Below are positions 7,052 to 41,887 of a stretch of DNA of 64,000 nt, piece after piece; the stretch's first letter is position 1, and every line of letters starts with the position of its first letter. Source of the stretch: Actinomycetota bacterium. Its GTDB lineage: Bacteria; Actinomycetota; Actinomycetes; S36-B12. Location of the stretch: positions 13,167-77,166 of the forward strand of contig JBJOJS010000023.1 in assembly GCA_046046455.1 (NCBI GenBank), read 5' to 3'. The position numbers and the translations under genes were made by a program. The notes beneath the pieces were generated by a model. That model did not search any database, had not been told where the DNA came from, and saw only the letters and a program-made list of their open reading frames with translations.

Positions 7052-7145
7052 GCGCGCATCCTGTCAGAGCCGGGGCGGCCGCCCGATGTTCGGGTAACTC
7101 GCTTCTGTCCCTCAAGCACGGGACGCCGCATCTAGGGTAATCCCC

Positions 7146-7832
7146 GTGGAGTCCCACCTGGATCCCGCCGACGAGTGGGCCCGCCGGGTCCTCATCGTCG
7201 ATGACGATGCCTTCATCAGCAGCCTGGTCACCGAGCTGGTCGCCGGCGCGGGCTTCACGCCCTATGTGGCACACACGGCGCATGAGGCGCTCCGCGTCGC
7301 GGACGACGTCGATCCGGACGCAGCGATCCTCGACATCGAGCTCGGTCCGGGTCCCAATGGCTTCGACCTCGCAGACGCGCTCCTGGCGCGCATGCCGCAC
7401 CTGGCCATCGTCTTCCTCACCCAGGTCGCCGGGCCCGACCTCGTCAATCGCACCGTCTCCATCCCGACGCAAGCGGCGTACCTCGTGAAGCGCGATTTGG
7501 GCGACGCCCAGGCGATCGTGCGCGCACTCGAACACGTGCTGCGCGACGGAGATCCACGGCCGGACTTCCGCGCGGACGAGCAGCGCAATGACCCTCTCAC
7601 CCTGCTGACACCCCAGCAGCTCGAGACCCTGCGACTCGTGGCCGAGGGACTGAGCAACGAGGAGATCTCCGTCCGTCGCGAGACCTCCGTGCGCGCCGTC
7701 GAGGCGATGGTGAGTCGCGTCTTCACGATCCTCGAGGTCAACAACGACCACCGCATCAATCCGCGCGTCGCTGCGACACGTCTCTACCTCGAGCACGGGG
7801 CATCTCCTCTGGCAGCGGAGGAGTCGGCCTGA
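7146..7832 (+). CDS. response regulator, NarL/LuxR family
   Basis: Receiver domain with VLIVDDD, a putative phospho-acceptor in AAILDIEL, and VFLT / YLVK. C-terminal HTH reads LTPQQLETLRLVAEGLSNEEISVRRETSVRAVEAMVSRV. The stop overlaps the kinase start (TGATG, 7829-7834). Confidence 0.9.
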   Translation: MESHLDPADEWARRVLIVDDDAFISSLVTELVAGAGFTPYVAHTAHEALRVADDVDPDAAILDIELGPGPNGFDLADALLARMPHLAIVFLTQVAGPDLVNRTVSIPTQAAYLVKRDLGDAQAIVRALEHVLRDGDPRPDFRADEQRNDPLTLLTPQQLETLRLVAEGLSNEEISVRRETSVRAVEAMVSRVFTILEVNNDHRINPRVAATRLYLEHGASPLAAEESA

Positions 7833-14085: not shown

Positions 14086-15123
14086 CTAGGGCCGCATGGA
14101 AGCGGTCAGCTTCAACCAGTACTTGACCCGGTCCTGCCAGGGGAATGCGCTCTCGACACCTACCCAGTCATCGACCCACTTATCGGAGAGCAGGCCGTAC
14201 CAGAGTTCACCCGCCACGAAGCCCTTGCCGAAGCTCAGACCCCTGATCGCGAAATCGTGTTCCTTGCGCCAGGTCGCGTAGTTGGTCCACGCCTGGTTGC
14301 CGTCTCCCTGCCCTGCCTCCAGGAGTCCGAGCTTGCTCGGGGTGATTCCGAACTTCACCAGCGTGTCCGCCAATTGGCCCGACGTGGGCACGAAGGCCGT
14401 CGCAGTAATGCCGATGAAATCGTTGGCGTCACCCAAGGACTCGCCCACGCGCTTGAGGAGGTCGAGCACGAGGCTGAAGGTGATCTCGGGCTGCTTCAGT
14501 CCTTCCAGGGACTTCATGAGCGCGTTCAGGGCCTCGGTCGTCTCATCCGGATTGAAGGCGGTGCTCACCGAGAGCGGGATCTTGGTGCTCTCGATGATGG
14601 TGGCCACCTGCTCCACCACCGGCTTGGTCAGCGAGTTGAGGATGCGCACGTCCGTGCTGCTACTGCCGTTGTCGCCCTCGAAAACAAAGGCAAGGGTCAC
14701 CATGATGTCTGCGGTGAGCGTGGTGCTGGTGCCGATGAACTGCGTCTCCTCGAGCGGGCGCACCGCGAGTTCGCCCTCGAACCACGCATCGCCCGTGCCA
14801 TCAGGGATGGAGGCTTCCTCGCCCGGCTCGACCGATCCGGTCTCCTGCGGAGAGTCGGTCACCCACGCCCACTTCGTGCTGCCCGGGACGCCTGTCGTGG
14901 ACTTGATACGGAGTACTGCGACGAAAGGCTCGTCGCCGTCGCTGACGAAGGAGTCTTCTTCGACTTCTTCCGGTCGAACGATGTCGTAGCCGACGAAACC
15001 CTTGAGGGTCGACGCGACCTCCCCCGATGAGGAGGCCGACTCCACGGGGGCCGTGCCCGATGTGCCGCAGGCCGCAAGGAGTCCCGCGAGCACGAGCACG
15101 GTCGCGACTCGGACGGTCCTCAT
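14086..15123 (-). CDS. lipoprotein of unknown function
   Basis: ATG at 15121-15123 gives MRTVRVATVLVLAGLLAACGTSGTAPVESAS (lipobox). 345 aa, acidic, with no motif I recognise. The start lies 1 nt after the stop of the upstream SGNH gene. The upstream part of ORF 14086..15354 is Pro/Arg-rich and overlaps that gene. Confidence 0.7.
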   Translation of the reverse strand: MRTVRVATVLVLAGLLAACGTSGTAPVESASSSGEVASTLKGFVGYDIVRPEEVEEDSFVSDGDEPFVAVLRIKSTTGVPGSTKWAWVTDSPQETGSVEPGEEASIPDGTGDAWFEGELAVRPLEETQFIGTSTTLTADIMVTLAFVFEGDNGSSSTDVRILNSLTKPVVEQVATIIESTKIPLSVSTAFNPDETTEALNALMKSLEGLKQPEITFSLVLDLLKRVGESLGDANDFIGITATAFVPTSGQLADTLVKFGITPSKLGLLEAGQGDGNQAWTNYATWRKEHDFAIRGLSFGKGFVAGELWYGLLSDKWVDDWVGVESAFPWQDRVKYWLKLTASMRP

Positions 15124-15124
15124 G

Positions 15125-16225
15125 TCAGTTCCTTCCCAGAGCGGCGAGGGCCACGCGCGCGAACTCGGCGTACCCCGCCTTATTGGGGTGCACACCGCTG
15201 TCGCCGGCGATGAGGTACGGCGTGCCCGGGCACCATCCGGTGTCGACGTACATCTCGGCGAAATTCTCCTGGGTCGGCGTGGACTGGTTGCTGGGACCGT
15301 CGGTCCCGGTGCCGTCCTTGGCCGCACCGAAGCAGTCGGCCGCGGTGTAGTCACCCGGGGGGACCCCCACGGCGAACTCCGGGTCAGCGGAGGTCAGGCG
15401 TGATCCCTCCGAGTGCGCGGACGTGACGGCGTCCATGGCCTTGGCGATGGTCGCGTTGAGCTCCTCGCGGGCGATGAGCAGGCCCGCAGGCGTGTAGTTG
15501 CCGAGTGCGAGCGCAGGCACCACCTGCGGGTAGGTCAGGACCAGGATCTGGGCATCCGTGCTGTCGAGCAGTCGCGTATAGACGGTGACGAGGGCGTCGT
15601 AGGTGCCGTCCTCGGTGATGATGCGGTTGAAGCATGCGCGGAGTTCCGCCTCCTGGCCGGGTTTGTCGTAGGCGTCGCATCGCTCGCCCTCGCCGAGGAT
15701 GACCTTGCCCAGGGTCGGGTTGCCCCCCAGTGTCATGAGCACGACGTCGGGGTCCTTCGCGGCGACGGCATCCAGGCCCTTGGCTCCATCGATCGTGAAG
15801 AGATCCTCAGCCCACTCCCGGCCGGTCGATCCGGAGATCGCGTAGTTGACGTACGACTCGGCGGGTACGCCGAGTCCCTGGGCGACCTGCGCGGCCCACG
15901 AGACCTGGTTGCCGTAGCCGTAGTCGGGGGCGAAGACGAGGGGCTCCTCGGCGGTGCGCGCCGTGCCGTTGGAGGAGCACAGGTCGTTCTTCTTGTCGGC
16001 AGGGATGGTGCCCTCCCCGACGCAGGTGAAGAACTCTTCGCCGGTCATCTCGGTGCCGTCGTCATAGAAGCCGAATCCCGCCGTGAAGCTGTCACCGAAG
16101 GCGACGATCCGCTCTGCTCCAGCAGGAGCTCCGGAGGATGCCGATTCGATGGGGGTTGCGGCTGTCGACCCGCAGGCGGCTAGGCCAAGGGCGAGCAGGG
16201 GAACGGCGAAGAGACGAGCGCGCAT
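15125..16225 (-). CDS. SGNH/GDSL hydrolase lipoprotein
   Basis: Lipobox LGLAACG. IVAFGDSFTAG (block I), TLGGNP (block II/III) and GDSGVHPNKAGY (block V DxxH). Confidence 0.8.
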   Translation of the reverse strand: MRARLFAVPLLALGLAACGSTAATPIESASSGAPAGAERIVAFGDSFTAGFGFYDDGTEMTGEEFFTCVGEGTIPADKKNDLCSSNGTARTAEEPLVFAPDYGYGNQVSWAAQVAQGLGVPAESYVNYAISGSTGREWAEDLFTIDGAKGLDAVAAKDPDVVLMTLGGNPTLGKVILGEGERCDAYDKPGQEAELRACFNRIITEDGTYDALVTVYTRLLDSTDAQILVLTYPQVVPALALGNYTPAGLLIAREELNATIAKAMDAVTSAHSEGSRLTSADPEFAVGVPPGDYTAADCFGAAKDGTGTDGPSNQSTPTQENFAEMYVDTGWCPGTPYLIAGDSGVHPNKAGYAEFARVALAALGRN

Positions 16226-16323
16226 GCCAGCACTCTAGGTAGAAGGGGTGCGCGAGGGGCGAGAGTATTCGGATATCTCACGCGGGTCCCTTCGCGACCG
16301 CAGTTCGCGGCTAGCCTGCCCTC
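16226..16323. promoter_or_regulatory. divergent promoter region between the SGNH operon and RHS-1
   Basis: 98-nt gap between divergently oriented starts. It contains ATTCGGATATCTCACGCGGG (16267-16286). This matches 15 of 20 positions of a motif placed at the same distance upstream of RHS-3. Confidence 0.35.
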
Positions 16324-19300
16324 ATGCGCTTCGCTTCTCCGGTCATCATCGCCGTCTCGCTGGCACTCACGGTCTCTGCGTGCACGTCCAGCCCGCCCGA
16401 GTCGGCGACCTCGAGTCCGACGCCCAGCGTCGTGGAGCCGACCGACGATGGTGCCATCGCGGCCGCGGGCACGCCCGTCGCCGATGTGCAGCCGTGGCTC
16501 GCGGGTGTTGTCCCCGGTGGCGACGCGAGCGGGCCGGTGAGCCCGACGGACTGGCCGTCGGCCACAGTGAAGGCTGCCGGGACCTCGACGTCTCTCACGC
16601 CCACGCTGGTCGCACCGGGCATCGACGGCGAAATCCGCGTCGAGATCGTGGACCTCAGCGCGGGCGGCGGGTTCGGCGCCGATGGCACCGGGGAGGCCAC
16701 CGAGCTCGTCTGGTCCGGGAGCGGTCGTGGAGCAGGCACCGAGGTGCCCGCCGACACGCTGCGCCAGGGAGCGACCTACGCCTGGCGGGCGTTGCGCAAT
16801 GAGCAGGTCGTCGGCGGGCCGTGGGGATTCGGCGTCGACGTCGTACGCACGGGCAATGCACCGATGGACCAGCTCTACGGCGTAAACGTCAACATGGTGA
16901 GCGGCGTGGTCTCGACACGCTGGGCCAGTCCGTCCTTCACAGGCGCCGCCGGCGGCATCGTCATCGCCCTGGGTTACCGCGCACCCGTGGAGGCGAAGCC
17001 CGTCAGCTTCCCCGGCCTGCCTGCCGGCTGGTCGTGGGACCTCCCGGGTTCAGGCCTCATCGAGGCACGCGAGTCCGAGATCACATCCGGATCGGGCGAT
17101 GACGCGGGGCCGCGAAGCGTCGTCCTGCTCAACGCGCAGGGCATCGGCCAGACCTTCGTCCGGACGGAGACGGGTGCCTACGTGCCCGGGCTCGCCGACG
17201 GTACGGCGACCGGATACGGCTCCGCCGGCACGCTCATCCGCATCGGCGACGGGATCTGGCAGTTCACCGCACCCGACGGCACCCTCACGCGCTTCGAGGG
17301 CGGCCGCACCGTGTCGGAGTGGAACGCCGGCCTGCCGACTGTCGCCTACACGTGGGATGCGGATGGCCGACTGCTGTCGATGGGCGACGGCATCTCCCGC
17401 ACGCTCTCGATGATCTACGCCGGCACCGGCGACTGCCCCGCCGCGAGCTGGGGCAATGGCTTCGATGTCGCCGAGGGCATGTGGTGCGCGACCGTCAATC
17501 CCGATGGGTCGGTCACGGGTGTCGGATACACGGGCGGACAGATTGGCCTGATCGCCGATGCGGGCGGAGTCAGCGCCGGGTTCGGCTGGGATCGTGCCGG
17601 TCGCCTCAGCGCCGTACGCAGCACGAGCGCCGCGGCCGCTGCCGCGACCGCCGGCGGCGCGTGGGCCGGACCTGAGTTCACGACGCAGATCGCCTACGAC
17701 GCCGTCGGCCGCGTGGAGTCCCTCACTGCGCCAGCTCCAGCGCCCGGAGTGGATCGCGTGCAGAGGTCGTACTCCTACCCCGCCGACGCCTCGTCCAGTG
17801 AGCTGACCGCGTCAGCCACGCAGTCCGTCGTCGGCAACGGCGCACCGCGACTGGTCTCCTCCGACCTCGGCTCGGGCCGCGTCCTGGAGATCACGGTCGA
17901 GTCCGAGACCTGGAAGACCCTCAAGCGCCGCGACGTCGACGGTCGCAGCACGACGGTGAAGTACGACGAGGAGTCCGGGGTCGTCCTTCAGGGCACGGAC
18001 GAGACCGGGCGCACCGTCCAGACACTCACGGACAAGGACTCCATCGCCACCGAAGTGGTCGGGCCCTTCGTCGGCTCCGACCAGGGCGCGATGCGCAACG
18101 AGCGATTCCTCGACGCGACGATCGACAACCCTGCCGCGGGCACGGACTCCCCCACCACTCCCTGGTACGGACTCGCGGCCGTGGTGTGGTCCGACGATGC
18201 AGGGACGCCGGCCTACTGGGACCGCGACCTCCTCGGCGACTCGCTGTCAGCTGAACTCAACGTGCCCGGATCGTGGAACGCCGTCGCGACGGGCACCTGG
18301 AAGGTGCCGGAGAGCGGCGTCTGGAAGGTCGAAGCCACGTCCTCCGACGGCGTCGGTATCGACGTAACCCTCGACGGCGTCCGCTGCACCAGCGACGTCG
18401 GCGAGCCCTGCGAGATAAAGCTCTCCAAGGGAGATCACGCGCTCGCGCTCAGCCTCGTCGGTCAGGGTGCCGGATCTTTCGCCGTACGCGCAGGGCGCGG
18501 AGGGGATGCGCCCAAGGCCCTGCCGATCGACGCACTGCGCCCCGGCTACCGTGCGGCGACGCTCATGTCGATCAACGACGTCGTCGACGGTCGCAATGTG
18601 GGCACGCAGGTGATCGAGAACTCCCGGCCCTGGTCCCCCTCCCCGGAGTCGATCCGATCGGCAGGCGACCTCGTCACCCGCTTCACCTACGAGCCCACGG
18701 ATCCCCGGAAGGGGAGCTGGGGCCGACCTCTCGACACGACGACACCGGGCGGGGCGGTCCTCTCCACGTCGTACTACGGCAACGACGAGCAGGTCGAGGA
18801 CCCGTGCACCGGCACTTCCTCCCCGCAGGTCGGCCAGCCCAAGACCCAGGTGCGCTACGACGGCGTACGCGTGACGACGGTCTACAACGCCCAGGGCTAT
18901 CCCGCGTCCGTGACGACGGAGGGCGCAGGCGGCGAAGGCCAGCGCACCTGCGCGACGTACGACCCGGCCGGCCGTCCGCTCACGACGAGCACGAAGACGC
19001 TCGGCGGCGAGGAACTGGCATCCTCGTCGACGGAGCGGGTCTGGCAGGACGGTCAGCTGGTCACCACGGTGACGTCAACGTCACCGCAGGGCACCTTCAC
19101 CACGCGCTCGGTCACCGACATCCTCGATCAGATCGTGTCGTACACCGACGCATGGGGCACGACCACCGACTACACGCTTGATGCCGAGGGGCTCATCGTG
19201 AAGCGCACCACGACGCCCAAGGGTGCGTCCGCGCCAGCCCTCGTGGTCGAGTACGGGTTCGAGAAGGGCAGCGGCTCGCTCTCCACGGTGAGCGCCAACG

Positions 19301-21006
19301 GGGAGGTCCTCGCCGCACTCGACTACGCCGAGACAGGGCTGCTGGACTCGGTGACCTACCCCGGCGGCGTCACCGCGACCTACGCTTACGCCGCCCCGGG
19401 CACGGTGGAGTCGATGGCCCTGAAGACGGCAGACCTGACCTTCAGCCAGGACCGCGAGCGCAATGCCGCAGGTCGCACGCTGGCGAGCACTCTGCGCGTG
19501 CGCAGCGACGGCGATGACGTGCTGCAGTCGCGCTGGGAGTACGGGTTCGATGACGCCGGGCGCCTGACGAAGGCGACGCTCAGCAGCAAGGGCGATGTCG
19601 ACGTCGTGGGCGGTGACAAGCGCACCTTCACCTACTCCTACGGCTCACCCGAGGCGTGCCCGACGACGGCGGGAGCCGACTTCAACCGCACGGGTGGCAG
19701 CCGCGACGGAGTCGACTTCGTCACTTGCTACGACGCGAAGTTCCGCATGGCGTCCACCACGGATCCGCGCCTCGCGGCGAAGGGCAAGGCGGAGGCGACG
19801 TACGACGCACTCGGTCGGCTCACGGCCCTCAGCGGCGACGTCCCCCTCGAGATCACCTGGGGAGCAGGCACGACGCCCCTGGCGATCACGCAGGGCGGTG
19901 CCGTGACGACACTCACCAACAGCGGGCCGAGCCTCATCGAGTACGCCGTGGACGGAGTCGCGACTCGACTGTCCTACGCGTCCGCGGGGCAGGCGCCCGC
20001 CCTCCTCCTCGACGATCAGGGCAAGGTCACCGCCATGCTCGTGGGCCTGCCCGGCGGAGCCCTCGCGCGGCTCGACGCCGCCGGCGCGCTCTCGCAGATC
20101 GACTACACCGACATCTTCAGCGCCGCGCTCACCAGCACGGCACCGGACGGCACCTCGCTCGGCTCCGGGCAGGCGCATCTCGCGACGCGCTTCGGCCCCT
20201 ACGGTGAGCCGCTCGTCTCCTCGGATGCGCTCGCGCCGGCAGCGACCTACGGCTGGCAGGCGGGGCCGCGCAATCCCACGGTCGGCGGGTGGCACGACAT
20301 CACCCTCACGGCGCGTCCCTACCACCCGTGGCTCGGCCAGTTCCTCGCCTTCGACCCGGCGGTCGGAGCGTCGACCACGGGCTACGGCTACGGCGATGGC
20401 AGCCCTGTGGACCGCCCTGACTTCAGCGGCAACTTCCCGATCTTCGAGACGCTGGCCATCGCCGGCGGAATCCTCGCCGGGGTCGCAGGCGTCGGCATGG
20501 GCCAGGTCAAGGTCGGCGCCAGCAAGGCGGGTCGCACTCTCGTCATCGGGGGCGCCGCTGTGGGCGTAGCGGCGGCCGTGACCGGCATCGTCGGCACCTG
20601 GACCACCGAGACCACCGACTCGAGCCAGGGACTCCAGATCGCCTCCACCGTCGTCGCAGGTCTGGGCATCCTCGCGATCGGGGGCGCCGCGGCGGTCCAG
20701 AAGTATCGCGAAGCGCAGTACATGACCAAGCTGCGTGCCTACGCCGACGACGCCATCAAGGCCTCCGAGGTCGCGTACACGAAGGAGTTGCAGAGCCTGC
20801 GACAGCAGCAACTGGCGATGTACGCCCCGGGCCTCACGGCCGAAGAGGGTCTGGAGTTGGTCGCCAAGTACGAGGAGAGCAAGGCAATCCTGGCCGAACT
20901 CATGGGCCGCTACCAGGGTAAGCAGGTCCACATGGACGCCCTGCACAAACAGGACCTCGAGTTCCTGAGCTTCTACAACGGCGAGCGGCCGCGGTGGTTC
21001 AACTGA
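16324..21006 (+). CDS. RHS/YD-repeat lipoprotein (RHS-1) with PA14-like insert and hydrophobic C-terminal tail
   Basis: 1560 aa. Lipobox LTVSAC. Many YD-type repeats (YTWDADGRLLS, YDAVGRVES, YDPAGRPLT, FDDAGRLTKA, YDALGRLTAL). RHS core end reads ARPYHPWLGQFLAFDP...GYGYGDGSPVDRPDFSG. A PA14-like block lies at about 18160-18540. The tail is at 20437-21003. Confidence 0.9.
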   Translation: MRFASPVIIAVSLALTVSACTSSPPESATSSPTPSVVEPTDDGAIAAAGTPVADVQPWLAGVVPGGDASGPVSPTDWPSATVKAAGTSTSLTPTLVAPGIDGEIRVEIVDLSAGGGFGADGTGEATELVWSGSGRGAGTEVPADTLRQGATYAWRALRNEQVVGGPWGFGVDVVRTGNAPMDQLYGVNVNMVSGVVSTRWASPSFTGAAGGIVIALGYRAPVEAKPVSFPGLPAGWSWDLPGSGLIEARESEITSGSGDDAGPRSVVLLNAQGIGQTFVRTETGAYVPGLADGTATGYGSAGTLIRIGDGIWQFTAPDGTLTRFEGGRTVSEWNAGLPTVAYTWDADGRLLSMGDGISRTLSMIYAGTGDCPAASWGNGFDVAEGMWCATVNPDGSVTGVGYTGGQIGLIADAGGVSAGFGWDRAGRLSAVRSTSAAAAAATAGGAWAGPEFTTQIAYDAVGRVESLTAPAPAPGVDRVQRSYSYPADASSSELTASATQSVVGNGAPRLVSSDLGSGRVLEITVESETWKTLKRRDVDGRSTTVKYDEESGVVLQGTDETGRTVQTLTDKDSIATEVVGPFVGSDQGAMRNERFLDATIDNPAAGTDSPTTPWYGLAAVVWSDDAGTPAYWDRDLLGDSLSAELNVPGSWNAVATGTWKVPESGVWKVEATSSDGVGIDVTLDGVRCTSDVGEPCEIKLSKGDHALALSLVGQGAGSFAVRAGRGGDAPKALPIDALRPGYRAATLMSINDVVDGRNVGTQVIENSRPWSPSPESIRSAGDLVTRFTYEPTDPRKGSWGRPLDTTTPGGAVLSTSYYGNDEQVEDPCTGTSSPQVGQPKTQVRYDGVRVTTVYNAQGYPASVTTEGAGGEGQRTCATYDPAGRPLTTSTKTLGGEELASSSTERVWQDGQLVTTVTSTSPQGTFTTRSVTDILDQIVSYTDAWGTTTDYTLDAEGLIVKRTTTPKGASAPALVVEYGFEKGSGSLSTVSANGEVLAALDYAETGLLDSVTYPGGVTATYAYAAPGTVESMALKTADLTFSQDRERNAAGRTLASTLRVRSDGDDVLQSRWEYGFDDAGRLTKATLSSKGDVDVVGGDKRTFTYSYGSPEACPTTAGADFNRTGGSRDGVDFVTCYDAKFRMASTTDPRLAAKGKAEATYDALGRLTALSGDVPLEITWGAGTTPLAITQGGAVTTLTNSGPSLIEYAVDGVATRLSYASAGQAPALLLDDQGKVTAMLVGLPGGALARLDAAGALSQIDYTDIFSAALTSTAPDGTSLGSGQAHLATRFGPYGEPLVSSDALAPAATYGWQAGPRNPTVGGWHDITLTARPYHPWLGQFLAFDPAVGASTTGYGYGDGSPVDRPDFSGNFPIFETLAIAGGILAGVAGVGMGQVKVGASKAGRTLVIGGAAVGVAAAVTGIVGTWTTETTDSSQGLQIASTVVAGLGILAIGGAAAVQKYREAQYMTKLRAYADDAIKASEVAYTKELQSLRQQQLAMYAPGLTAEEGLELVAKYEESKAILAELMGRYQGKQVHMDALHKQDLEFLSFYNGERPRWFN

Positions 21007-21012
21007 CCTGAT

Positions 21013-21050
21013 CCGCACGGCCGATCGGCTACAGGCGATCGGCCGTGCGG
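21013..21050. terminator. 15-bp stem hairpin between the convergent RHS-1 and RHS-2 genes
   Basis: CCGCACGGCCGATCG (21013-21027) pairs perfectly with CGATCGGCCGTGCGG (21036-21050) around an 8-nt loop. The RHS-2 stop codon (21029-21031) lies in the loop. There is no clear U-tract. Confidence 0.5.
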
Positions 21051-24000
21051 TGGTCGCCCTCGCGCGAGGGCATGCCCTCGCAGCCACCCTCGACGGGGCA
21101 GTCCTGCGGATCCGCGGCTCCCGCCTCGCCCTGCTCGGCCTCCGCGGCCTGCTGCGGCTGCTGACCGCCGCCGAGCAGGAGCTGGAAGCCGGCCACGGTG
21201 AGCGAGGCCTGCGTGATCGTCTTCAGCAGCGTGGGCTTCTCGTTCGCCACCTGCGATGAGGCGCGGATGGCGCTGTCGGCGAGCTCATCGGCGCTGTCGA
21301 TCACGGAGGATGTCGCCTTCGACGCCTCCTTCCACGCCTTGTATCTCCCGGCACCCCAGGTCGCCATGTCGATGCCGACGGAGATCGCCTCGAAGACGAG
21401 ATCCGTCGTCGTCAACTCCTCGAAGCCGCCTCGCTCCCACGCGGTCACCGAGAGCTGCGCCGCGCTCGTCGTCAGGGAGATCGCCAGCACGATGGCGAAG
21501 GATCCGGGCAGCATGATCGACGCGGTGATGCTCGCCACGGCGAGCACATTGCGCGCGAAGTCGAACCACGAGTAGGCGCCGGTGGGGTCCGAGTAGTTGA
21601 CCGGATCGGCCTCGGCGAAGCCGTAGCCGGTCGAGGAGGATCCCGGGACAGGGTCGAAGGCGAGATAGGCGCCGAGCGCGGGCAGATAGGGCCGCGCGAG
21701 GGACAGCACGAGGCCGGAGCCGCCGGAGAGTGTGGGCTCCAGGCGCGAGAATCCGTAGCCGTAGGAGGGCGGATCGGCTGCGAGCGCGCCTGCGGACGGC
21801 CGGCCCGTCTCCAATGGTTCGCCGAACGGGCCGAGGGCCTCGGCGAGGACTCCTCCGCCGGCGCCCCGCACGGCCTGGCCACGGGCATCGGTGCGCACCA
21901 CGACCTCGCCGCGGATGCCCGGGTGATCGAGGACGACATCGCCACTTGCCAGGGACTTCTTCCACAGCGCGCCACCGGGCAGCAGCAGGCGCACCTGCGT
22001 GGGACTGCCCTGCCCATCGAGCAGCAGTCCCGGGGCGATGGCGGTCGGATTGGCATAGGCCATGAGGGTGGTGGTCGAGGCCGAGTCATCCGACGTGCGT
22101 TGTGCGACCAGGCGGCCGAGCGCATGCGCGAGGTCGGAGGTGACCGGCACGGCACCCATGCCGTCGACGATCGTGGCGGGCAGGCCGCCCCAACTCCAGT
22201 CCAGGCTGAGCGTGGCTCCCTCGGCCTCGCTCGACGTCAGCCGGCCGAGCGCATCCCAGGAGAGCCGGGCCGAGCCGCCCTGCGGGGCCATGAGCGGATC
22301 CGTCGTCGATACGGCGCGCCCCGCACCGTCGTAGCAGGTCACGTAGTCGCGATCGTCGCGTCGCCCGCTCGTGCGATCGAGGTCGATACCGGGATCCCCC
22401 GACGTGCCGCACGAGGCGTCCTGTGGGCCGAAGCGGTAGTCGAAGCGCCGCCGATCGGCGCCCACGCCCGCCTGGTCGCCCTCGACGTCGAGGATCGCGG
22501 TCGACAGGCGCGCCGCCTTGTCGTAGGCGTAGCCCCATTCGCGCTTCGTGCTCGCCTCGCCCGCGCGCACGACCCGCGTGGTGCGGGTGGAGATGCGGCC
22601 GGCGTCGTTGGTGCCGGTCGCATCGGTGACGAGCGAGCCGTCTGCCAGGGTGATCGCCGTCGACTGCACCGTGCCGTTGGGGCGGTACTCGAACTCCTGG
22701 GAGACGGCGGAGGCGTATTCCACGCTCGCGACTCGCCCGGCACCGTCGTACCGGACTCGGGCGATCTCCCTCCCGTCGATTGACATGCGCGTGGGCCGAC
22801 CCGTATCCGCGTCGAACTCCTGGCTCGATGTCACGAGTTCCTTGCCGTCGACCGAGGTGGTGCGGCTGATCTGATTGCCCTGGACGTCATACCGATAGTC
22901 GAAGACCGCTCCGGTGAGGTCGCGATAGGTGACCAAGCGGCCCAGGAGATCGACGGTCGTCTCGGTGACCGCCTGCGCGGGGAATATCTCGCCGGGGGGA
23001 GTGGTCGTCACCTGCGTGCGCGTGCGGCGCGGGTCGCCCTCGACCCCAGCGCTGACGATCGCCTCCTCCACGAGATCGCCCTTGACGCCGTAGAGACGTG
23101 ACGACGTGACACTGCCATCGCTCGCGAACGTCCAGCAGGCGAGTTCGCCCGCCTGGCCGCCGGTGCGGATGGCGATCGTGCGGCCGGCGGCATCGAACCA
23201 TCGCTCGACCACGACCCCGTCGGTGCGGGTGATGGAGCGCACCTGGCCCGCCTGCGGCGCGGCTGCGGCATCCGGGCAGGGCGGTGACTCACTGGCGCCC
23301 GTGACCGGCCAGTACGCCGTTGTCGTGACCCGACCGCCCGGCGTGGTCGCGGTGAGCTTGCGACCCCAGCCGCCCTGGCCGACCGGCTCGTAGGTCGCGC
23401 GCGAGACGCGACCCCCGGGCGACTCCACCTGCGTGGGGCGCCCGGTCCAGGGCTCGTCGTACGTCGTGTAGGTGTCGAAGGCGGAGCCCTCGGCGAATCG
23501 GTCGTTGGTCAGCGTCGCCGTCTGGACCCCGAATCCCGGCGTGACCGATGACATGACTTCGAGCTTTGACGGCAGCCTGCCGCCTCCGTCCACCTCGGCG
23601 CCCACGCGCAGGCTCGACTCGGCGGTGCTGGAGGACATATCGATGCGCAGAGCATGCTCGCCGTCGCGCAGATCGAATCGGCAGATGCCATCGGAGTCCG
23701 CCTCGCAGGGTCGGTTGTCGACGTACACCGTGACGTCTGCCTCATCCGCGGCTCGCACCTGCAGAGCCCACGTCGTCGCTTTGCCGTCCCCGGCGCCGGT
23801 ATCCGTGCGCCAGGTCCCCGCGAAGCGGCCCGACCACGAGCCCTGGCCCACCGGACTCGCAGCCCAGTCGACCTCCACGCGCCCATCGCGCGCGATCCAG
23901 CCCCCGGCGGCAAGGGGACCTGTCGCTCCCGGCGACGCCCAGTAGTCGGCGGCCAGTCCCTCGTACGCCTCGCCATCGCGCATCTGGTCGACCTGCGTGG

Positions 24001-25771
24001 TCTGCGAGAACGCGGCATCACCCACGGTCGAAGGCCCGGTGAAGCCACTGCGCCGCCCTTCGCCGTACGTGTATCGGGTGACGCGACCCTCGTAGTCGGT
24101 GATCGACTCGACCCGCCGGCCAGACTTGTCCCAGGCCATGGATGTCGTCGCTCCGTCGCGATCACGGCGCGTGAGCGGACGCCAGTCGGCTGCACTCACG
24201 GTCATCTCGAAGAGCCGCCCTTGGCCGATCGATGACTGCAGCGGCTGGACCCCGGCACCATAGGAAAAGTCGCCCGCGAGGGATCCTGCGATGACGGCTG
24301 CACTCACCGGGGTCGCATCGAGGGACGCCTGCTGCGAGATCAACGGGTACTCGTAGAGGTGCACGAGCCGCTCCGCACCGGGAGCGGGTGCCCCCTCGGC
24401 CACACCCCACACTCGACCCGAGGGGTCGTAGGCAACCTGCGTGAGCACGTCGGTGGCCGCGCGATCGACGGTGCCCGAGGCGACAGCCGCGTTGGCCATC
24501 GGCTGGCGCACGGCCGCGAGGCGCCCGGAGGCATCCCACCCGATTCCCAGTCCGATCTCGCTCATCGGTCCGGGGCCGCCGACGGCATCGGCGATGAGCC
24601 CGATCTGCGGTGTGCCAGCGGCATCGACGTAGTGGATCTGCGTCGACGTGCCGTCCCACCAGGTGACCTGGCACAGCATCGCTTCCGGCGCAGCAACGAA
24701 TCCCGATGCGACAGGGCAGTCCGCGCCGTAGGCGAAGTCGATCGTGCGCTCGCTCGGATCGGTCACCGTGCGGGGCAGACCCTCACCCGTCCACTGGACT
24801 CGGCCGGCGAGGAGCCCCGAGGGGTACGACGCGACCGGTCGATCACCCTGGAACTCGGTGATGTCGCCATTGGTCTCCGTGAGCTGCCAGATGTCGCCTT
24901 CCCGCACCAGGGTTCCGGACGTCGCCGCGTCCATCCGGCGGCCGTTGGACCAGGTCTGCGTGTAGACGCCTACGTCGTTGCGGGTGAAGGTCATCGATCG
25001 TCCGGTGACATCGGCGACGTAGACCGAGGTCGGCACTCCATCGCGCACCGACTCCGACGGCTCGAATGTCGTCCACCGCGATGCGAGCGGCACGCTCATC
25101 CGCCATCCCGCCGGCATGCCGGCGCTTGAGGTCTGGCCGGGCTGGTAGGTGAGGAGGGCGAATGCCTGCCCGGCGACCGTCGGGTAGGAGCGCGAGGTCC
25201 AGGTGAGGGTCGGCACGCCGGTGATGAGGTGCGTCGTCACGCCGCCGAGCGCATCGCGGGGAGCGAGGCCGGGACGCGTCGCGTCGATGTTGAGCGAGAA
25301 GGGTCCCGCCCAGTCCCCGGAGGGGGCGTTGGCATTGCGTGCACGCCAGGAGTACTGCCGACCATCCTCGAGGGTGCCCGGGGGCACCTGCCATTCACGG
25401 CGCGAGCCCCCCGACGCCAGTGGCTCGTCGACGCCCGGCTCGTCGCCGGCCGAGACGTCGTAGATCTCGAAGGTCACATCCTCGGCCTCGACCTGCGCAG
25501 GGGCGACGAGCGTGGGCGTCACGGACACGGCGAGGCCGGAGGCATCGAGAGCCGACGGCGGGAAGGCCTCCGGAAGGGCCGGACCCGAGCCCGCCGAAGG
25601 GGGCAGCGCCCCCGCCTCAACCGCAGGTCGCAGCCCCGCTGCTGCCGGAGCGCCCGCGTCGGCAGACTGCGATGCGGACTCGACCGGGGCAGGAGTCGGC
25701 GGTGTCGAGGTGCACCCCGCCAGCACAGCGAGCGCGCTCGCCAGCGCGACGAACCCCGAAGCGCGCCTCAC
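21029..25771 (-). CDS. RHS/YD-repeat lipoprotein (RHS-2) with PA14-like insert and hydrophobic C-terminal tail
   Basis: GTG 25769-25771 gives VRRASGFVALASALAVLAGCTS (lipobox). YD repeats include YDPSGRVWG, FDAAGRTIA, YDGAGRVASV, YDKAARLSTA and WDALGRLTS. Core end reads ARPYLPALGAYLAFDP...ADPVNYSDPTGAY. The tail is at 21032-21577. The start overlaps the upstream gene's stop (GTGA). Confidence 0.9.
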   Translation of the reverse strand: MRRASGFVALASALAVLAGCTSTPPTPAPVESASQSADAGAPAAAGLRPAVEAGALPPSAGSGPALPEAFPPSALDASGLAVSVTPTLVAPAQVEAEDVTFEIYDVSAGDEPGVDEPLASGGSRREWQVPPGTLEDGRQYSWRARNANAPSGDWAGPFSLNIDATRPGLAPRDALGGVTTHLITGVPTLTWTSRSYPTVAGQAFALLTYQPGQTSSAGMPAGWRMSVPLASRWTTFEPSESVRDGVPTSVYVADVTGRSMTFTRNDVGVYTQTWSNGRRMDAATSGTLVREGDIWQLTETNGDITEFQGDRPVASYPSGLLAGRVQWTGEGLPRTVTDPSERTIDFAYGADCPVASGFVAAPEAMLCQVTWWDGTSTQIHYVDAAGTPQIGLIADAVGGPGPMSEIGLGIGWDASGRLAAVRQPMANAAVASGTVDRAATDVLTQVAYDPSGRVWGVAEGAPAPGAERLVHLYEYPLISQQASLDATPVSAAVIAGSLAGDFSYGAGVQPLQSSIGQGRLFEMTVSAADWRPLTRRDRDGATTSMAWDKSGRRVESITDYEGRVTRYTYGEGRRSGFTGPSTVGDAAFSQTTQVDQMRDGEAYEGLAADYWASPGATGPLAAGGWIARDGRVEVDWAASPVGQGSWSGRFAGTWRTDTGAGDGKATTWALQVRAADEADVTVYVDNRPCEADSDGICRFDLRDGEHALRIDMSSSTAESSLRVGAEVDGGGRLPSKLEVMSSVTPGFGVQTATLTNDRFAEGSAFDTYTTYDEPWTGRPTQVESPGGRVSRATYEPVGQGGWGRKLTATTPGGRVTTTAYWPVTGASESPPCPDAAAAPQAGQVRSITRTDGVVVERWFDAAGRTIAIRTGGQAGELACWTFASDGSVTSSRLYGVKGDLVEEAIVSAGVEGDPRRTRTQVTTTPPGEIFPAQAVTETTVDLLGRLVTYRDLTGAVFDYRYDVQGNQISRTTSVDGKELVTSSQEFDADTGRPTRMSIDGREIARVRYDGAGRVASVEYASAVSQEFEYRPNGTVQSTAITLADGSLVTDATGTNDAGRISTRTTRVVRAGEASTKREWGYAYDKAARLSTAILDVEGDQAGVGADRRRFDYRFGPQDASCGTSGDPGIDLDRTSGRRDDRDYVTCYDGAGRAVSTTDPLMAPQGGSARLSWDALGRLTSSEAEGATLSLDWSWGGLPATIVDGMGAVPVTSDLAHALGRLVAQRTSDDSASTTTLMAYANPTAIAPGLLLDGQGSPTQVRLLLPGGALWKKSLASGDVVLDHPGIRGEVVVRTDARGQAVRGAGGGVLAEALGPFGEPLETGRPSAGALAADPPSYGYGFSRLEPTLSGGSGLVLSLARPYLPALGAYLAFDPVPGSSSTGYGFAEADPVNYSDPTGAYSWFDFARNVLAVASITASIMLPGSFAIVLAISLTTSAAQLSVTAWERGGFEELTTTDLVFEAISVGIDMATWGAGRYKAWKEASKATSSVIDSADELADSAIRASSQVANEKPTLLKTITQASLTVAGFQLLLGGGQQPQQAAEAEQGEAGAADPQDCPVEGGCEGMPSREGDHRTADRL

Positions 25772-27198
25772 TTGTTGGTGATCGTCGCGAGCCAGGAGGC
25801 TCCAAACGCGTAGGAGGAGCCAGCGCTCCCGCCCGTGGAGGCGCACTCGATCGAAAGCTGGGACTGGGCCAGCGAGGACGCGTCGCTCTGACAGGAGATC
25901 AGCGCCTGCTCGACCTGCTTGCCGTTCTCGTTCACCTTCTTGATGGACGGCCTGCCGCCATTACCGCGGACGCCGTCGAGTTCCAAGGACGCAGCGATGC
26001 GCAGGGTGACGTTCTTGTCGAGGAACTCACGGGACGCCGCCGGCATCCTCGTGGTGAAGGTCAGGCTCGCATCGGGCCAGCAGGCATTCTCCGCAGAGGT
26101 GGCACCCTTGCGGCAGGCGTAGACCTCACCCGTCGATGACGTGATGTTGATCGGCTCGAGCTTCAATTGCAGCGTGGTCTTCGCGTTCCTCGCGAGAGCG
26201 TAGGCACCCACCGTGATGACGTTTCCGTCACCGGGCCCCACCACCTGGCCCACGGGCGACTTGCGCTGCGCCCACTGCGCCCCCTGAGTGAGGCTCGCAT
26301 CCACGATGCGCCAGGCGAGGAAGAGCTTTTCGTTCTTGAAATCCCCCCCGGGATTCTTGGCCGGATCCTGCTTGTACACCTTCACCGTGGCGTCCTTGCC
26401 CACTACCCCAGTCCACGTGGTCTTGATATCGACCCGCATCGGTGCCGTCCAGGCATAGGTGTCGTAGACGAAGTCCCACTTGTATCCGCTGTTGTACGTG
26501 TCCGTCCAGCAGCCCACCACGGAAGAGTTCCGCACCTCGCAGCTCGGGTATGTCTTCACGTCCTTGGTGTCGTTGTCGCGGGTGTCCCATGGCGCCTTGA
26601 TTTCCGCCGACGCGAGGGCGGAATCGATGCAGCCGCGATCCTTGGTGAAGGTGGACACACTGCCATCCTGGCTGCGGTCGACATTGGTGCACTTCCACCA
26701 CACGTAGCCGTTGGGGTCGCGCGCCCAGTCACGATCCTCCTGATGTCCCCACCAGCCGGGGTGATCGCTCCAGACCTTGCCGTCCCAGTAGTAGTACGTC
26801 TGCAGGTTCGACACGCCCATCGGCGGCCGGGCGCACTCCCACTCGCCTTCCTCATCGTCAAAGTTCCACGCCTTCTCACCCGTCTGCATCAGCCAGACGA
26901 CGTCGGTGTTGGACGGATCGACATCGGTACGGGCGCGGAAATCGTTGCGGAGCCAGACGACATCGAGGTTGTTGTAGATGCGCGCATTGGCCGTGACGTC
27001 ATCTCGCGAGCGGCACTTGGACTTCGGGTGCTGCTCTCCCGCCACCTCGCCCTCCCCGGCCGACTCCACCGGCGCCGGGCTCGAAGCCGGTGCGGCGTCC
27101 GAGGAGGAGGTACCTGATGTCGACGTGCCTGATGTGCAGGCGGCAAGCGCGAGCGCCCCCGCCACAGCGACTACCACCGCGTGCATCTTCCTGGCCAT
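25768..27198 (-). CDS. Trp/Cys-rich lipoprotein of unknown function, translationally coupled to RHS-2
   Basis: MARKMHAVVVAVAGALALAACTS (lipobox). 476 aa with Trp-rich stretches (YYYWDGKVWSDHPGWWGHQEDRDWARDPNGYVWWKC) and about 11 mature-chain Cys. I recognise no family motif. GC is lower than the neighbours by eye (about 58-63% on two sampled 60-nt lines). Confidence 0.75.
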   Translation of the reverse strand: MARKMHAVVVAVAGALALAACTSGTSTSGTSSSDAAPASSPAPVESAGEGEVAGEQHPKSKCRSRDDVTANARIYNNLDVVWLRNDFRARTDVDPSNTDVVWLMQTGEKAWNFDDEEGEWECARPPMGVSNLQTYYYWDGKVWSDHPGWWGHQEDRDWARDPNGYVWWKCTNVDRSQDGSVSTFTKDRGCIDSALASAEIKAPWDTRDNDTKDVKTYPSCEVRNSSVVGCWTDTYNSGYKWDFVYDTYAWTAPMRVDIKTTWTGVVGKDATVKVYKQDPAKNPGGDFKNEKLFLAWRIVDASLTQGAQWAQRKSPVGQVVGPGDGNVITVGAYALARNAKTTLQLKLEPINITSSTGEVYACRKGATSAENACWPDASLTFTTRMPAASREFLDKNVTLRIAASLELDGVRGNGGRPSIKKVNENGKQVEQALISCQSDASSLAQSQLSIECASTGGSAGSSYAFGASWLATITNK

Positions 27199-27297
27199 GC
27201 TCCGAGCGTACGTCGCACGAGGCGGGAGTGCGGGGTGATGTTCGGGTTTCTCACACGTGCCGGGCCCGGGCTACGTTCCCCGGGATACCTTCGCGCT
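27199..27297. promoter_or_regulatory. divergent promoter region between the lipoprotein/RHS-2 operon and RHS-3
   Basis: 99-nt gap between divergent starts. It contains GTTCGGGTTTCTCACACGTG (27240-27259) 38 nt before the RHS-3 ATG. This is similar to 16267-16286, which lies 37 nt before the RHS-1 ATG. Confidence 0.35.
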
Positions 27298-30200
27298 ATG
27301 CGCACTCGCCAGCGACTGTTCGCCGCTGTCGCCGTCACGGCGAGCCTTGCCATGGTGGCCACCGGCTGCACCACCTCCACTGAGCCGTCGCCGACGCCCT
27401 CCGCCGCACCCGTGGAGACCGCTGAGACGTCCGGGGGAGTCGCCGCGTCGTCGATCAACGCGGCGGACGTCCAGCCCTGGGTCGCGGGGACGGTCCCGGG
27501 TGGCGATGCCACCGGGCCGACGTACCCGACCGAATGGCCCGACGCCCCCGTGATCGGAGGCGGGCAGACGACATCGCGCACGCCCACGCTCATCGTCCCC
27601 GACGATGCACGGCTCTCCGGCGATGTGCAGGTGCAGATCGTCGACCTCGGCATCGGCGGTGGCTTCGGCCTCGACGGCCGCGGAGAGGCGACCGGTATCG
27701 CCTTCGAGGGGCGCCGCAGCACACGAGGCTTCACCGTCCCCGCAGACACCCTGGTCGACGGGGGCACCTACGCCTGGCGTGCCGGCAGCCCCGACGACTG
27801 GGCGGGACCGTGGGTCTTCACGATCGACACCGTCCGCTCGCAGAACGCTCCGGTCGACTCGGTGGGCAACATCAACGTCAATCTCATGTCGGGAGTGCCG
27901 GCCGCGCGATGGACGAGTCCCGAAGTGTCCGGGGCGCTCGGCGCCTTCGGCATCGGCGTGATCTTCCGACCCGGCAGCCCCGCGACTCCAGGACTCCCCG
28001 AGGGCTGGAACTGGGTGCTCCCCGGGAGCGGGTTCATCAGCCTGCAGGAGTCCGAGGTGATGTTCGGCGATGCGGCCGACGTATCGCTCTTCGGTGGTGA
28101 TGCCGGCCCCCTCAGCGTGACCCTGCGCACCACCAACGGCGCCGGCCTGACCTTCGTGCGCACGGAGACCGGCGGCTACGTCCCGGGCCTGTCGGACGGC
28201 ACCGCGACGGCGTACTCGCGCGGTGGTGTGCTCACGCGGATGAGCCCGAACACATGGCAGTTGTCCACTCCCGACGGCTCCATGACGCGATTCGTGGACG
28301 GCCGCGCCGTGAGCGAGTGGTCACGCGGCAACCCGGTCGCCAACTTCACCTGGGACGAGCAGGACCGCCTCGTCAGCGTCAGTGACGGCACCTCCCGCAC
28401 GACGACACTCGCCTACGCGGGCGGGTCATGCCCGGCGGTGGACTGGGGCAACGGCTTCGATGTCGCCGACGGCATGTGGTGCTCGGCGACGTACGCCGAC
28501 GGCACCGTCACCGGCATCGGCTACGTCGGCGGCCGGATCGGGCTGATCGCCGACCCCGGCGGATTGGGCACGGGCTTCGGCTGGGACGGCGCCGGTCGCC
28601 TCGCCGCTGTGCGCTCTCCGGGTGCCACCGCAGCGGCAGCCACCGCGGGAAATGACTGGGCCGGGGCGGACCTCACCACTTCTGTCGCGTACGACGGTGT
28701 CGGTCGTGTCGCGTCCCTGACGTCCGCGGCGACAGCACCCGGAGGCGAGCGGCTGACACGCACCTACACCTACCCGACGGGCGCACCGCGCGACGGCGAG
28801 CTGAAGGCGGCGGTCATGCAGGAGGGTGGTCCCTCCGCGGGGACCGTCCTTCAGGTCACCGCGACAGCCGACCGCTGGCAGGTAACCGAACGGGTGGAAG
28901 CAGGTCGGCTGACGACCACCACCGACTACGACACGGCAGGGGTCGTCACGCGGGGCACCGACCCGCAGGGTCGCACCCTCACGACGAAACTCGACGACGA
29001 GGCGCTCATGCGCACGTCGACAGGGCCGTACACCGGCTCCCCTGACGGCGCGCTCCGGACCGATCGCACGCTGGACGCCACAGCGACGAATCCCGAGGCC
29101 GGCGCCACCTCACCGACCGAGCAGTGGCACGGCCTCTCCGCGATGGTGTGGTCCGGTGATGAGGGCCGGGCCGAGTGGTGGGACGAGCGCACCCTCGAGG
29201 AGCGCGGTGTGGGCGGAGTCGTCGGCACCGAAGGCGAGTGGGAGGCCCAGGCATCCGGACTCTGGAAGGTGCCCGAGTCGGGCGTCTGGACGATCGAGGC
29301 GACGGCCTCCGACGACCTGCGCATCGAGGTGCTCGTCGACGGCGTTCGGTGCCCGGAGGGCGACGGCTGCGAGATACGCCTGGACCAGGGCGAGCACAAC
29401 CTCGCCATCGCCCTGCGCGGCAAGGGGAGGGGATCGTTCAGCGTCAAGGCGGATCGGGGCGGTGAACCCACGCGCATCCCCATCACGCAGGTGCGGCCGA
29501 ACTTCAACACGGCGACGGTCGTATCACTCAACGACAACGTCGAGGGTCGCAATGTCGGCTCGCAGGTCTACGACTTCGCTCGGCCCTGGACCCAGGCACC
29601 CGAGAGCGTCACCGCAAGCGGCGGCCTGCGCACGGCGTTCACGTACGAGCCGGAGTCGCCCGCGTCCGATCAGTGGGGCCGTCAGACGGGCACGCGCACC
29701 GCCGGCGGCGCCACCATGGCGACGGCGTACTACGGCGCCGACGAGCAGGCGAGCGGTGCCTGCGGCGGTGGCGGCGTACAGGGAGGACTCGCGCGCCAAA
29801 TGACCCGCTACGACGGGGTCACCATCACTTTGGTCTACGACGGTGCGGGCCGTGTCCAGTCGATGGTCACGTCCGGGGACGGTGCTTCCGAGACGACCTG
29901 CCTCGCCTACGACGCTGCCGGACGGACGGTGTCGACGAGCATCGCCGACAAGACCGGCGCCACGCTGCGCTCCTCGATGTACACCTACACCTGGTCCGAC
30001 GGCCGGCTCACGACGCAGCTCACCTCCACCGTCGCGGGTGAGTCCTTCACGACATCGACGACCTACGACATCGCCGGCAGGGTGCTGGAGTTCGTGGACG
30101 CATGGGGCGCGAAGACGTCATACGACTATGACGTCGAGGGCAACAACACCAAGCGCACAACGACAGCCCCCGGTGGCTCGTCACCCATCCTGACCGTGGA

Positions 30201-31818: not shown

Positions 31819-31824
31819 GGCGAA

Positions 31825-39968: not shown

Positions 39969-40030
39969 GGGGATCACCTCGAGACGGGCGGGGAGGACAT
40001 TCCCCGGGCCCACGATGGGCCCGCAGAAGA

Positions 40031-41877: not shown

Positions 41878-41887
41878 TGACCTGAGA

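Follow-up and report, generated by a model that had tools for sequence, protein, structure and literature searches.

A short module at the end of the tether of unrelated lipoproteins in freshwater Actinomycetota, a putative processing or docking signal

Six lipoproteins encoded in a 64-kb stretch of actinobacterial DNA (contig JBJOJS010000023.1 of assembly GCA_046046455.1, positions 13,167 to 77,166, forward strand; ~69% G+C; hereafter the window) carry the same peptide module behind their lipobox. We found that this module is the last part of a portable N-terminal leader of three parts: a lipoprotein signal peptide with a lipobox, a variable disordered tether, and the module itself, about 13 residues long. 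The module is real, selected at the protein level, independent of the cargo behind it, restricted to one lineage and to certain protein families, and syntenic with protease genes. It looks like a common processing or docking signal that has not previously been described. The finding supplies a defined peptide tag, a candidate enzyme pair and regulator next door, and a natural cargo-swap experiment.

All sequences compared here are from uncultured organisms, mostly on short contigs; related loci are numbered L and database proteins P. Homologous proteins occur only in metagenomes and in metagenome-assembled genomes (MAGs) labelled Candidatus Nanopelagicales or Actinomycetota, whose names point to lakes and rivers, two of them to Lake Mendota; every homologue is annotated as hypothetical, and the six protein families involved are annotated as hypothetical or not at all. 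The module itself was found only in proteins of freshwater Actinomycetota MAGs and metagenomes. Lipoproteins were recognized by a basic n-region and a hydrophobic h-region followed by [LVI][ASTVI][GAS]C, and such a signal peptide, which predicts lipidation, is present in all six proteins and in every module-bearing homologue.

Results

The shared motif belongs to a longer, two-part module

A sequence-only reading of the window had noted a five-residue motif, P[VIP]E[ST]A, 5 to 27 residues behind the lipobox cysteine of six genes. Translation of the open reading frames (ORFs) recovered all six motifs at these distances and at the following positions, and two of the copies are nearly identical in DNA, as had been described.

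15034-15048, PVESA, 345-aa lipoprotein
16139-16153, PIESA, SGNH lipoprotein
16393-16407 (+), PPESA, RHS-1; by alignment with other RHS proteins a probable look-alike in the linker
25673-25687, PVESA, RHS-2
27058-27072, PVESA, 476-aa lipoprotein
27409-27423, PVETA, RHS-3

Alignment of the N-termini extended the motif to about 13 residues, of which these five are only the first half: A-P-[VI]-E-S-A-S-x(0-4)-G-x-[VIP]-A (the strict two-part pattern). The modules of the window are listed below.

15013..15051 (-), APVESASSSGEVA, 345-aa lipoprotein; 5 residues past the cysteine and directly ahead of the folded domain
16121..16156 (-), TPIESASSGAPA, SGNH/GDSL lipoprotein
16423..16461 (+), PSVVEPTDDGAIA, RHS-1; degenerate, in register with the other RHS modules
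25643..25690 (-), APVESASQSADAGAPA, RHS-2
27040..27075 (-), APVESAGEGEVA, 476-aa lipoprotein
27406..27444 (+), APVETAETSGGVA, RHS-3

The assignment for RHS-1 had to be revised. PPESA is present there, but among nine RHS N-termini it is PSVVEPTDDGAIA that lines up with APVESASPEAQGEIA and the like, with a conserved ADVQPW 18-20 residues downstream, and a MAFFT alignment likewise set PPESA against linker and PSVVEPTDDGAIA against the module. By alignment, PPESA is probably a look-alike and not the homologous module. Similar upstream half-copies (SAPETSS, PPESATS) lie in the tethers at L007:2430(-), L008:5679(-) and window 16393-16407, and may be degenerate internal duplications.

The motif was strongly enriched over composition-preserving shuffles of the six tethers (n=5000 for the regular expression), in which at most two of the six shuffled tethers matched, against six of six observed. 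With no motif predefined, an exact 5-mer common to three of the six tethers arose in ~0.05% of shuffles (p ~5e-4) and a 4-mer common to four of the six in ~0.02% (p ~2e-4). A six-frame scan of the whole window with the full module expression, whose chance rate is ~1.1% per shuffled tether, returned exactly five matches, all in tethers of the block.

The module lies 3-32 residues from the cysteine and ends a disordered tether of Ser, Thr, Pro and Ala. For the 345-aa family, AlphaFold2 gave a predicted local distance difference test score (pLDDT) below 50 at residues 1-24 and 31-37 and marginal confidence for the module, and the fold begins at about residue 41. Together, the alignment, the window scans and this model profile indicate that the module is a short linear element that ends the tether. 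A lipobox scan of the ORFs found four more credible lipoproteins in the window: an S8 subtilase (cysteine codon at 9718), a Tat-exported BBE oxidase (13975), an Ig-like protein (34722) and one at 47171. All four lack the motif, in agreement with the first reading. Six of the ten lipoproteins of the 64-kb window, the range this frequency covers, therefore carry the module, the RHS-1 copy being degenerate.

The module is maintained as a peptide in divergent relatives

The six leaders of the window share no DNA similarity beyond composition, and their signal peptides and tethers differ. Among 23 distinct module instances from the window and related loci, every codon varies synonymously (Ala GCC/GCG/GCA/GCT; Pro CCC/CCG/CCT; Val GTG/GTC; Glu GAG/GAA; Ser TCN/AGC/AGT). 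Selection therefore acts on the module peptide. An Rfam scan of the window gave no match, and this result, the synonymous codons and the lack of leader DNA similarity rule out a signal at the DNA or RNA level.

The module is kept at the protein level across orthologues of 37-90% identity, where it forms a conserved island while the tethers of the 345-aa, 476-aa, RHS and SGNH proteins change in length and sequence. We compared 41 homologues of the 345-aa protein, at 45-90% identity. Those that are lipoproteins retain [VI]-[ED]-[ST]-[AS]...G-x-V-A behind a tether of 4 to 32 residues, and the module is present in 23 of 24 orthologues. The non-lipoprotein homologues P0031-P0035 lack it, and we observed that a Sec signal peptide with an Ala/Ser-rich N-terminal extension of 100-260 aa replaces their tether and module. 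Six homologues of the 476-aa protein (P0156-P0161; 37-62% identity) keep APV[EDAT]SAS.GEVAG behind tethers of varying length, with the modules APVESAEEGDVA, APVDSASSGEVAG, APVASASSGEVAG, ATVESASPGAVAG and APVTTASSSDAGDLAG. RHS and SGNH orthologues in L007, L008, L011, L016, L075 and L077 also keep it, the RHS-2 orthologue at L075 1478+ as APVESESASGAPA.

In the SGNH orthologues of L007, L008 and L016 the module reads APVES[AS]SSAGAPA and is followed by a second Pro/Thr linker, so that it is not part of the SGNH fold. That the module might belong to each cargo fold is ruled out by this second linker, by the module-less non-lipoprotein homologues of the 345-aa protein and by the end of profile similarity at the module in hhalign comparisons (below). 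A Signal peptidase I site (S-A-S) was also considered and is ruled out, as over 30 residues can separate the module from the h-region.

The conserved core raises the question of a modification site. A Ser or Thr nearly always follows the acidic residue and the tethers are rich in Ser, Thr and Pro, so [ED]-[ST]-[AS] might mark O-glycosylation or another modification, possibly for tether protection or wall-polymer binding. The known O-mannosylated N-termini of actinobacterial lipoproteins are Ser/Thr/Pro-rich like these tethers, and the Bacteroides sequon D-(S/T)-(A/I/L/V/M/T) resembles the core triplets E-S-A, D-S-A and E-T-A. A sequon would, however, leave unexplained the conserved Pro-Val before the triplet and the G-x-V-A behind it; the variants VEPA, VEPT, VIDAS and VEEP have no Ser or Thr at that position; the conserved gene block holds no dedicated glycosyltransferase; and the tethers of the S8 and BBE proteins are Ser-rich yet have no module. 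We consider a sequon an unlikely explanation.

The module is confined to certain protein families

The module is not confined to the six genes of the block in which it was first noticed. A profile of leader and module searched exhaustively against 1.84 billion representative proteins gave 25 matches with E values up to 1e-3, the convincing ones being the 476-aa family, an RHS fragment and two new families, X and Y.

Family X, ~170 aa: P0162, P0164, P0165, P0167 and the gene at L005 1053-
Family Y, 210-245 aa: P0170-P0172, P0174, P0183, P0184

An hhalign comparison shows X and Y to be distant homologues (99%), and neither has a match in Pfam. They form tandem arrays in which each copy has its own leader and module (Y-X-Y in L015, Y-Y in L019 and in L048). 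We also observed that the genes of these arrays (L015:121-2017; L019; L048; with X also at L016:4186-4737) are translationally coupled, that both families share a [DN]P..G.P.V[TS] motif and that family Y carries a conserved Cys pattern in addition. The extra X copy in L016 (4186-4737) lies between the S8 and TAP-like genes, its gene call truncated at the N-terminus.

Other searches added no further family. A scan of metagenome DNA for the module alone, with a fixed 3-residue spacer, returned 57 matches, of which five were real (345-aa or Y lipoproteins) and 52 were unrelated proteins, for example a ligase-like PVE[ST]ALLDGEVAV. A word-index search with a short N-terminal profile found only short proteins with generic lipoprotein signals, Pfam and NCBIfam scans found nothing over the module-bearing N-termini, a PDB profile search over the module gave only generic signal-peptide matches (E >0.1), and a literature search for the peptide strings matched only acronyms.

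We then scored the distinct lipoprotein N-termini of the window and related loci against the strict pattern and a loose form of it.

RHS: strict 7, loose 3, none 0
SGNH: strict 3, loose 0, none 0
X: strict 3, loose 0, none 0
Y: strict 4, loose 3, none 0
345-aa: strict 9, loose 2, none 1
476-aa: strict 2, loose 0, none 0
S8: strict 0, loose 0, none 7
BBE: strict 0, loose 0, none 5
Other lipoproteins: strict 0, loose 0, none 1

Thus 28 strict and 8 loose modules were present among 37 distinct N-termini of the module families, and none among the 13 of the S8, BBE and other lipoproteins. Some resemblance is to be expected in linkers so rich in Pro, Ser, Ala and Glu: the tethers are compositionally biased, comparable strings occur now and then in lipoproteins from other phyla with no relation to these (P0065, P0182), and most hits of the metagenome pattern were spurious. 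Chance similarity is nevertheless refuted by the shuffles, the six-frame window scan, the conservation among orthologues and this partition by family, and we give it practically no weight.

The leader and module form one unit behind which cargo is exchanged

Profile comparisons of Y with the 476-aa family and of the 345-aa with the 476-aa family by hhalign aligned only leader and module, and the similarity ended at GEVA[GS]. The module is thus carried by five mature domains that are unrelated to one another: RHS, SGNH, 345-aa, 476-aa and X/Y.

A natural experiment was found at one locus. The DNA of L016 (7560-8060) is highly similar to that of L008 (5620-6120) and L007 (3200-3700), with a mean column identity of 83%, a figure that takes in the breakpoint along with the rest of the alignment. 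The match begins in the 5' part of the SGNH gene, crosses the divergent intergenic promoter region and continues through signal peptide, tether and module as far as GGCGAGGTGGC[CT]GGC (G-E-V-A-G), where it stops abruptly. Behind GEVAG, L016 continues into a family X body (WGTKGVE...; 196 aa) and L007 and L008 into an RHS body (AGVNAADVQPW...; ~1550 aa). Since the breakpoint falls exactly at the end of the module, leader and module behave as one unit with the cargo swapped directly behind it. In most families the module abuts the folded cargo. The proposal that a motif on otherwise unrelated mature proteins reflects a common signal is thus well supported, by orthologue conservation, the five domains, the absence from S8 and BBE proteins and the cargo swap.

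The same swap could be taken to mean that an ancestral leader spread by recombination with no function of its own, or that the module is microhomology for cassette exchange. Leader and module are demonstrably exchanged between genes, and the short tethers of X, Y and the 345-aa family are alike (C-G-S-T-A-T-A-P-V-E-S-A-S). Such hitch-hiking is difficult to reconcile with the six window leaders, which keep the module through synonymous changes with no DNA similarity around it, with its conservation by column in orthologues of 37-60% identity whose flanking tethers are scrambled, or with its absence from the S8 and BBE proteins of every genome compared. We regard it as very improbable.

Module genes lie beside a two-component system and an S8 protease

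The genes of the block and its flank are listed below.

7098..9673 (+), LuxR-type response regulator and histidine kinase genes; upstream of the S8 gene
9670..11064 (+), S8 subtilase lipoprotein; without the module, candidate enzyme acting on it
11061..12524 (-), TAP-like (S33) alpha/beta hydrolase; Sec signal peptide, candidate N-terminal trimming enzyme, also in L016
12527..14080 (-), BBE/FAD oxidase lipoprotein; Tat-exported, without the module, internal negative control
14086..15123 (-), 345-aa lipoprotein; no Pfam/NCBIfam family
15125..16225 (-), SGNH/GDSL hydrolase lipoprotein; first in the packed run
16324..21006 (+), RHS-1 lipoprotein; YD repeats, Rhs core and a ~190-aa C-terminal domain
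21029..25771 (-), RHS-2 lipoprotein; its likely GTG start overlaps the 476-aa stop (GTGA)
25768..27198 (-), 476-aa lipoprotein; conserved pair with the downstream RHS gene
27298..31818 (+), RHS-3 lipoprotein

The SGNH, 345-aa, BBE and TAP-like genes form a tightly packed run on the minus strand, convergent with the response regulator, histidine kinase and S8 genes on the plus strand; RHS-1 (+) is divergent from SGNH, and the 476-aa gene precedes RHS-2 (-). The histidine-kinase ORF runs into the S8 ORF, with an overlap at 9661-9673, and the order regulator-kinase-S8 adjoins module-bearing genes in L016 and L077 (S8 in L008 and L075). This overlap and the conserved order in L016 and L077 indicate that S8 is probably co-transcribed with the two-component system. 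The synteny holds even where BBE, SGNH or TAP-like genes are absent. S8 is syntenic with module-bearing genes in L008, L011-13, L016, L075 and L077, and the unit of regulator, kinase and S8, with or without the TAP-like gene, adjoins module genes in genomes down to ~45% protein identity. S8, itself a lipoprotein, carries an I9-like propeptide. A faint likeness to the module (PES.S ... G.EVA) at its pro-mature junction, DDPESSSPPFPEPGDGGWEVAALG (window 10000-10120, residues ~110-150; DPESSS...GGWEVAAL), was set aside as too weak to serve as evidence.

The adjacent kinase suggests one further function, in which S8 would release the module from several tethers as a peptide that the histidine kinase senses. 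The conservation of regulator, kinase and S8 beside module genes, the overlap of the kinase and S8 ORFs and the repeated encoding of one peptide fit such a precursor, and enterococcal pheromones cut from lipoprotein signal peptides offer an analogy. The case is circumstantial throughout: it calls for a second, hypothetical cleavage, and the sequence drifts between paralogues of one genome, which would be unusual for a signal. We think it very doubtful.

The pairing of 476-aa and RHS genes recurs in L075 (1470-1478) and L077 (1197-1200), with the 476-aa stop overlapping the RHS start (GTGA at 25768-25771 in the window; 4 nt in L077). This conserved pair with its overlapping stop and start suggests an accessory role of the 476-aa protein. 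The RHS proteins score above cut-off for PF05593 and TIGR01643, and the TIGR03696 core at residues 1290-1420 lies at or just below its cut-off of 32.5 bits (32.6, 26.5 and 25.8 bits). Each core is followed by 150-190 aa, for which Pfam and NCBIfam scans reported no toxin domain. RHS-1 and RHS-2 converge across a 22-bp gap (21007-21028), and RHS-3 is followed within 6 bp (31819-31824) by a lyase gene, read as purB; none of the three window RHS genes leaves room for an adjacent downstream immunity gene.

The AlphaFold2 model of the 345-aa protein (pLDDT 81, predicted template modelling score 0.81) combines a mixed beta-sheet with long helices, and a Foldseek search of the PDB gave no match better than E = 0.09; judging from the model, the protein may have a new fold. 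The model of the 476-aa protein (mean pLDDT 50) was too poor to use. Elsewhere in the window, positions 40000-44600 have unusual AT and GC skew and lower G+C and encode polytopic membrane proteins, one of which reads like cytochrome oxidase subunit I; no link between this region and the module was seen.

Discussion

The reading that we place first, though tentatively and at less than even odds, is that the co-encoded S8 and TAP-like proteases recognize the module and cleave there. We infer from sequence that a common factor may read the module in trans, and in the same way both the cut and the protease that would make it. A lipid anchor would first fix the proteins to the outside of the cytoplasmic membrane. 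The S8 subtilase lipoprotein, under two-component control, would then cut in or beside the module, perhaps followed by trimming of the Pro-rich remnant by the secreted TAP-like (S33) aminopeptidase, and the RHS toxins, the SGNH hydrolase and the uncharacterized cargo proteins would in this way be freed from the cell. Cleavage fits the synteny with regulator, kinase and S8, usually with the TAP-like gene, and the position of the module at the junction of tether and cargo, where a releasing cut would be expected. Proteolytic release ranks first for us on four grounds: the module sits at this junction, it does so at whatever distance from the membrane, its synteny with two extracellular peptidases, neither of which has the tag, is conserved, and Streptomyces offers a precedent.

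Several points weigh against this. A two-part stretch of 13 residues with a variable spacer exceeds a typical subtilase site and would suit a docking peptide. The SGNH proteins of L007, L008 and L016 have their second linker past the module, so that a cut would leave no clean cargo, and some orthologues have D, A or T in place of the module Glu. The synteny with S8 and TAP-like genes could reflect co-regulation of unrelated exoenzymes, and beside the X/Y arrays, seen on short contigs only, no protease is visible.

A docking or clustering handle is nearly as likely as cleavage and accounts for the same facts, although we would still call it only a possibility. The uncut module would bind a common partner, whether a scaffold of the wall or membrane, one of the uncharacterized lipoproteins encoded nearby or another copy of itself, and so gather the cargo in a surface assembly. 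Modularity, family specificity and cargo swap would be the same, and the two-part pattern with its variable spacer is better explained than by cleavage: V-E-S-A ... G-E-V-A around a variable Gly-containing spacer could form a small hairpin or a strand added to a partner. The module stands on both members of the conserved, translationally coupled 476-aa/RHS pair, and MAFB-N and APD1/APD2 provide a precedent (PMC3482391). On the other side, the partner is only putative, AlphaFold2 gives the module marginal confidence and shows no packing, Pro is frequent in the second half (GAPA, GDPA) and fits strand pairing poorly, and the distance from the membrane varies tenfold.

A more speculative suggestion, somewhat doubtful in our view, covers either outcome: the module might address a defined set of lipid-anchored cargo to a dedicated, as yet undescribed pathway of monoderm Actinomycetota, controlled by the two-component system, that takes this cargo off the membrane or assembles it into a surface weapon. 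If true, the module would be the equivalent, at the N-terminus and on lipoproteins, of the sortase, exosortase and type IX secretion system tags found at C-termini, with cargo exchangeable by recombination (RHS toxins, a lipase/esterase and small beta-rich proteins). The tag on three RHS toxins suggests how the abundant freshwater Actinomycetota deploy toxins with no dedicated secretion system, and the tag, if it proves transferable, could be a tool to display or release proteins in actinobacterial hosts.

Comparison with known systems

Short motifs behind the lipobox are known from diderm sorting. The lipoprotein export signal (LES) of Bacteroidota and the proteobacterial +2 Lol-avoidance signals lie immediately beside the cysteine (positions +2 to about +6; for the +2 rule see PMC7530257) and decide the fate of a subset of lipoproteins. 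The module likewise marks such a subset, but 3-32 residues separate it from the cysteine, it closes the tether, and the bacteria that have it lack an outer membrane. Sorting signals of the LPXTG/sortase, exosortase and rhombosortase types are C-terminal motifs ahead of a transmembrane helix and a basic tail, unlike the N-terminal module, and Pfam and NCBIfam scans reported no sorting-signal model.

Precedent for release comes from two directions. Lipoproteins of B. subtilis are released into the medium by cleavage shortly past the cysteine; to our knowledge, no consensus motif and no dedicated protease has been assigned to such shaving. If cleavage is confirmed, the module would be the first defined signal for lipoprotein release, a process whose mechanism in Gram-positive bacteria was described in a review as still under investigation (PMC7530257). 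The second precedent is the transglutaminase of Streptomyces mobaraensis, which is an actinobacterial secreted protein as are the candidate substrates here, beside which an S8 endoprotease and a TAP-like hydrolase are encoded. Work by Zotzel and colleagues in 2003 is said to have shown that it is matured by an endoprotease and then by a tripeptidyl aminopeptidase. Its pro-region is a folded inhibitor, the native endoprotease is a metalloprotease and the Pro-containing remnant is trimmed by a TAP-family (S33) enzyme. The present case differs in having a lipoprotein tether in place of the folded pro-region, no shared motif is known, and the cleavage proposed here is hypothetical.

The RHS proteins invite comparison with toxins exported through Sec or lipoprotein leaders with no dedicated secretion system. 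WapA of Bacillus subtilis is a Sec-exported RHS toxin. SitA of Myxococcus is a lipoprotein polymorphic toxin of a diderm, delivered by outer-membrane exchange, with the lipoprotein leader as delivery determinant (PMC5562445). Neither has a conserved module past its tether that is common to non-toxin proteins, and the RHS genes here differ further in leaving no room for an adjacent immunity gene.

The closest concept is that of the constant N-terminal domains of polymorphic toxins and effectors: the module is a shared N-terminal leader element that marks exported effectors. Zhang et al. (2012; PMC3482391) described lineage-specific constant domains of this kind (MAFB-N of Neisseria, Microscilla-N, and APD1/APD2 of Amoebophilus) and proposed that they serve anchoring or clustering. 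These domains resemble the present module in standing behind a signal peptide or lipobox, in being confined to one lineage and in preceding diverse C-terminal bodies that include toxins and hydrolases. They are globular domains of diderm bacteria with no sequence relationship to it, whereas the module described here is a linear element of about 13 residues that closes a disordered tether in a monoderm lineage, the Actinomycetota, and behind which whole mature proteins are exchanged and not toxin tips only.

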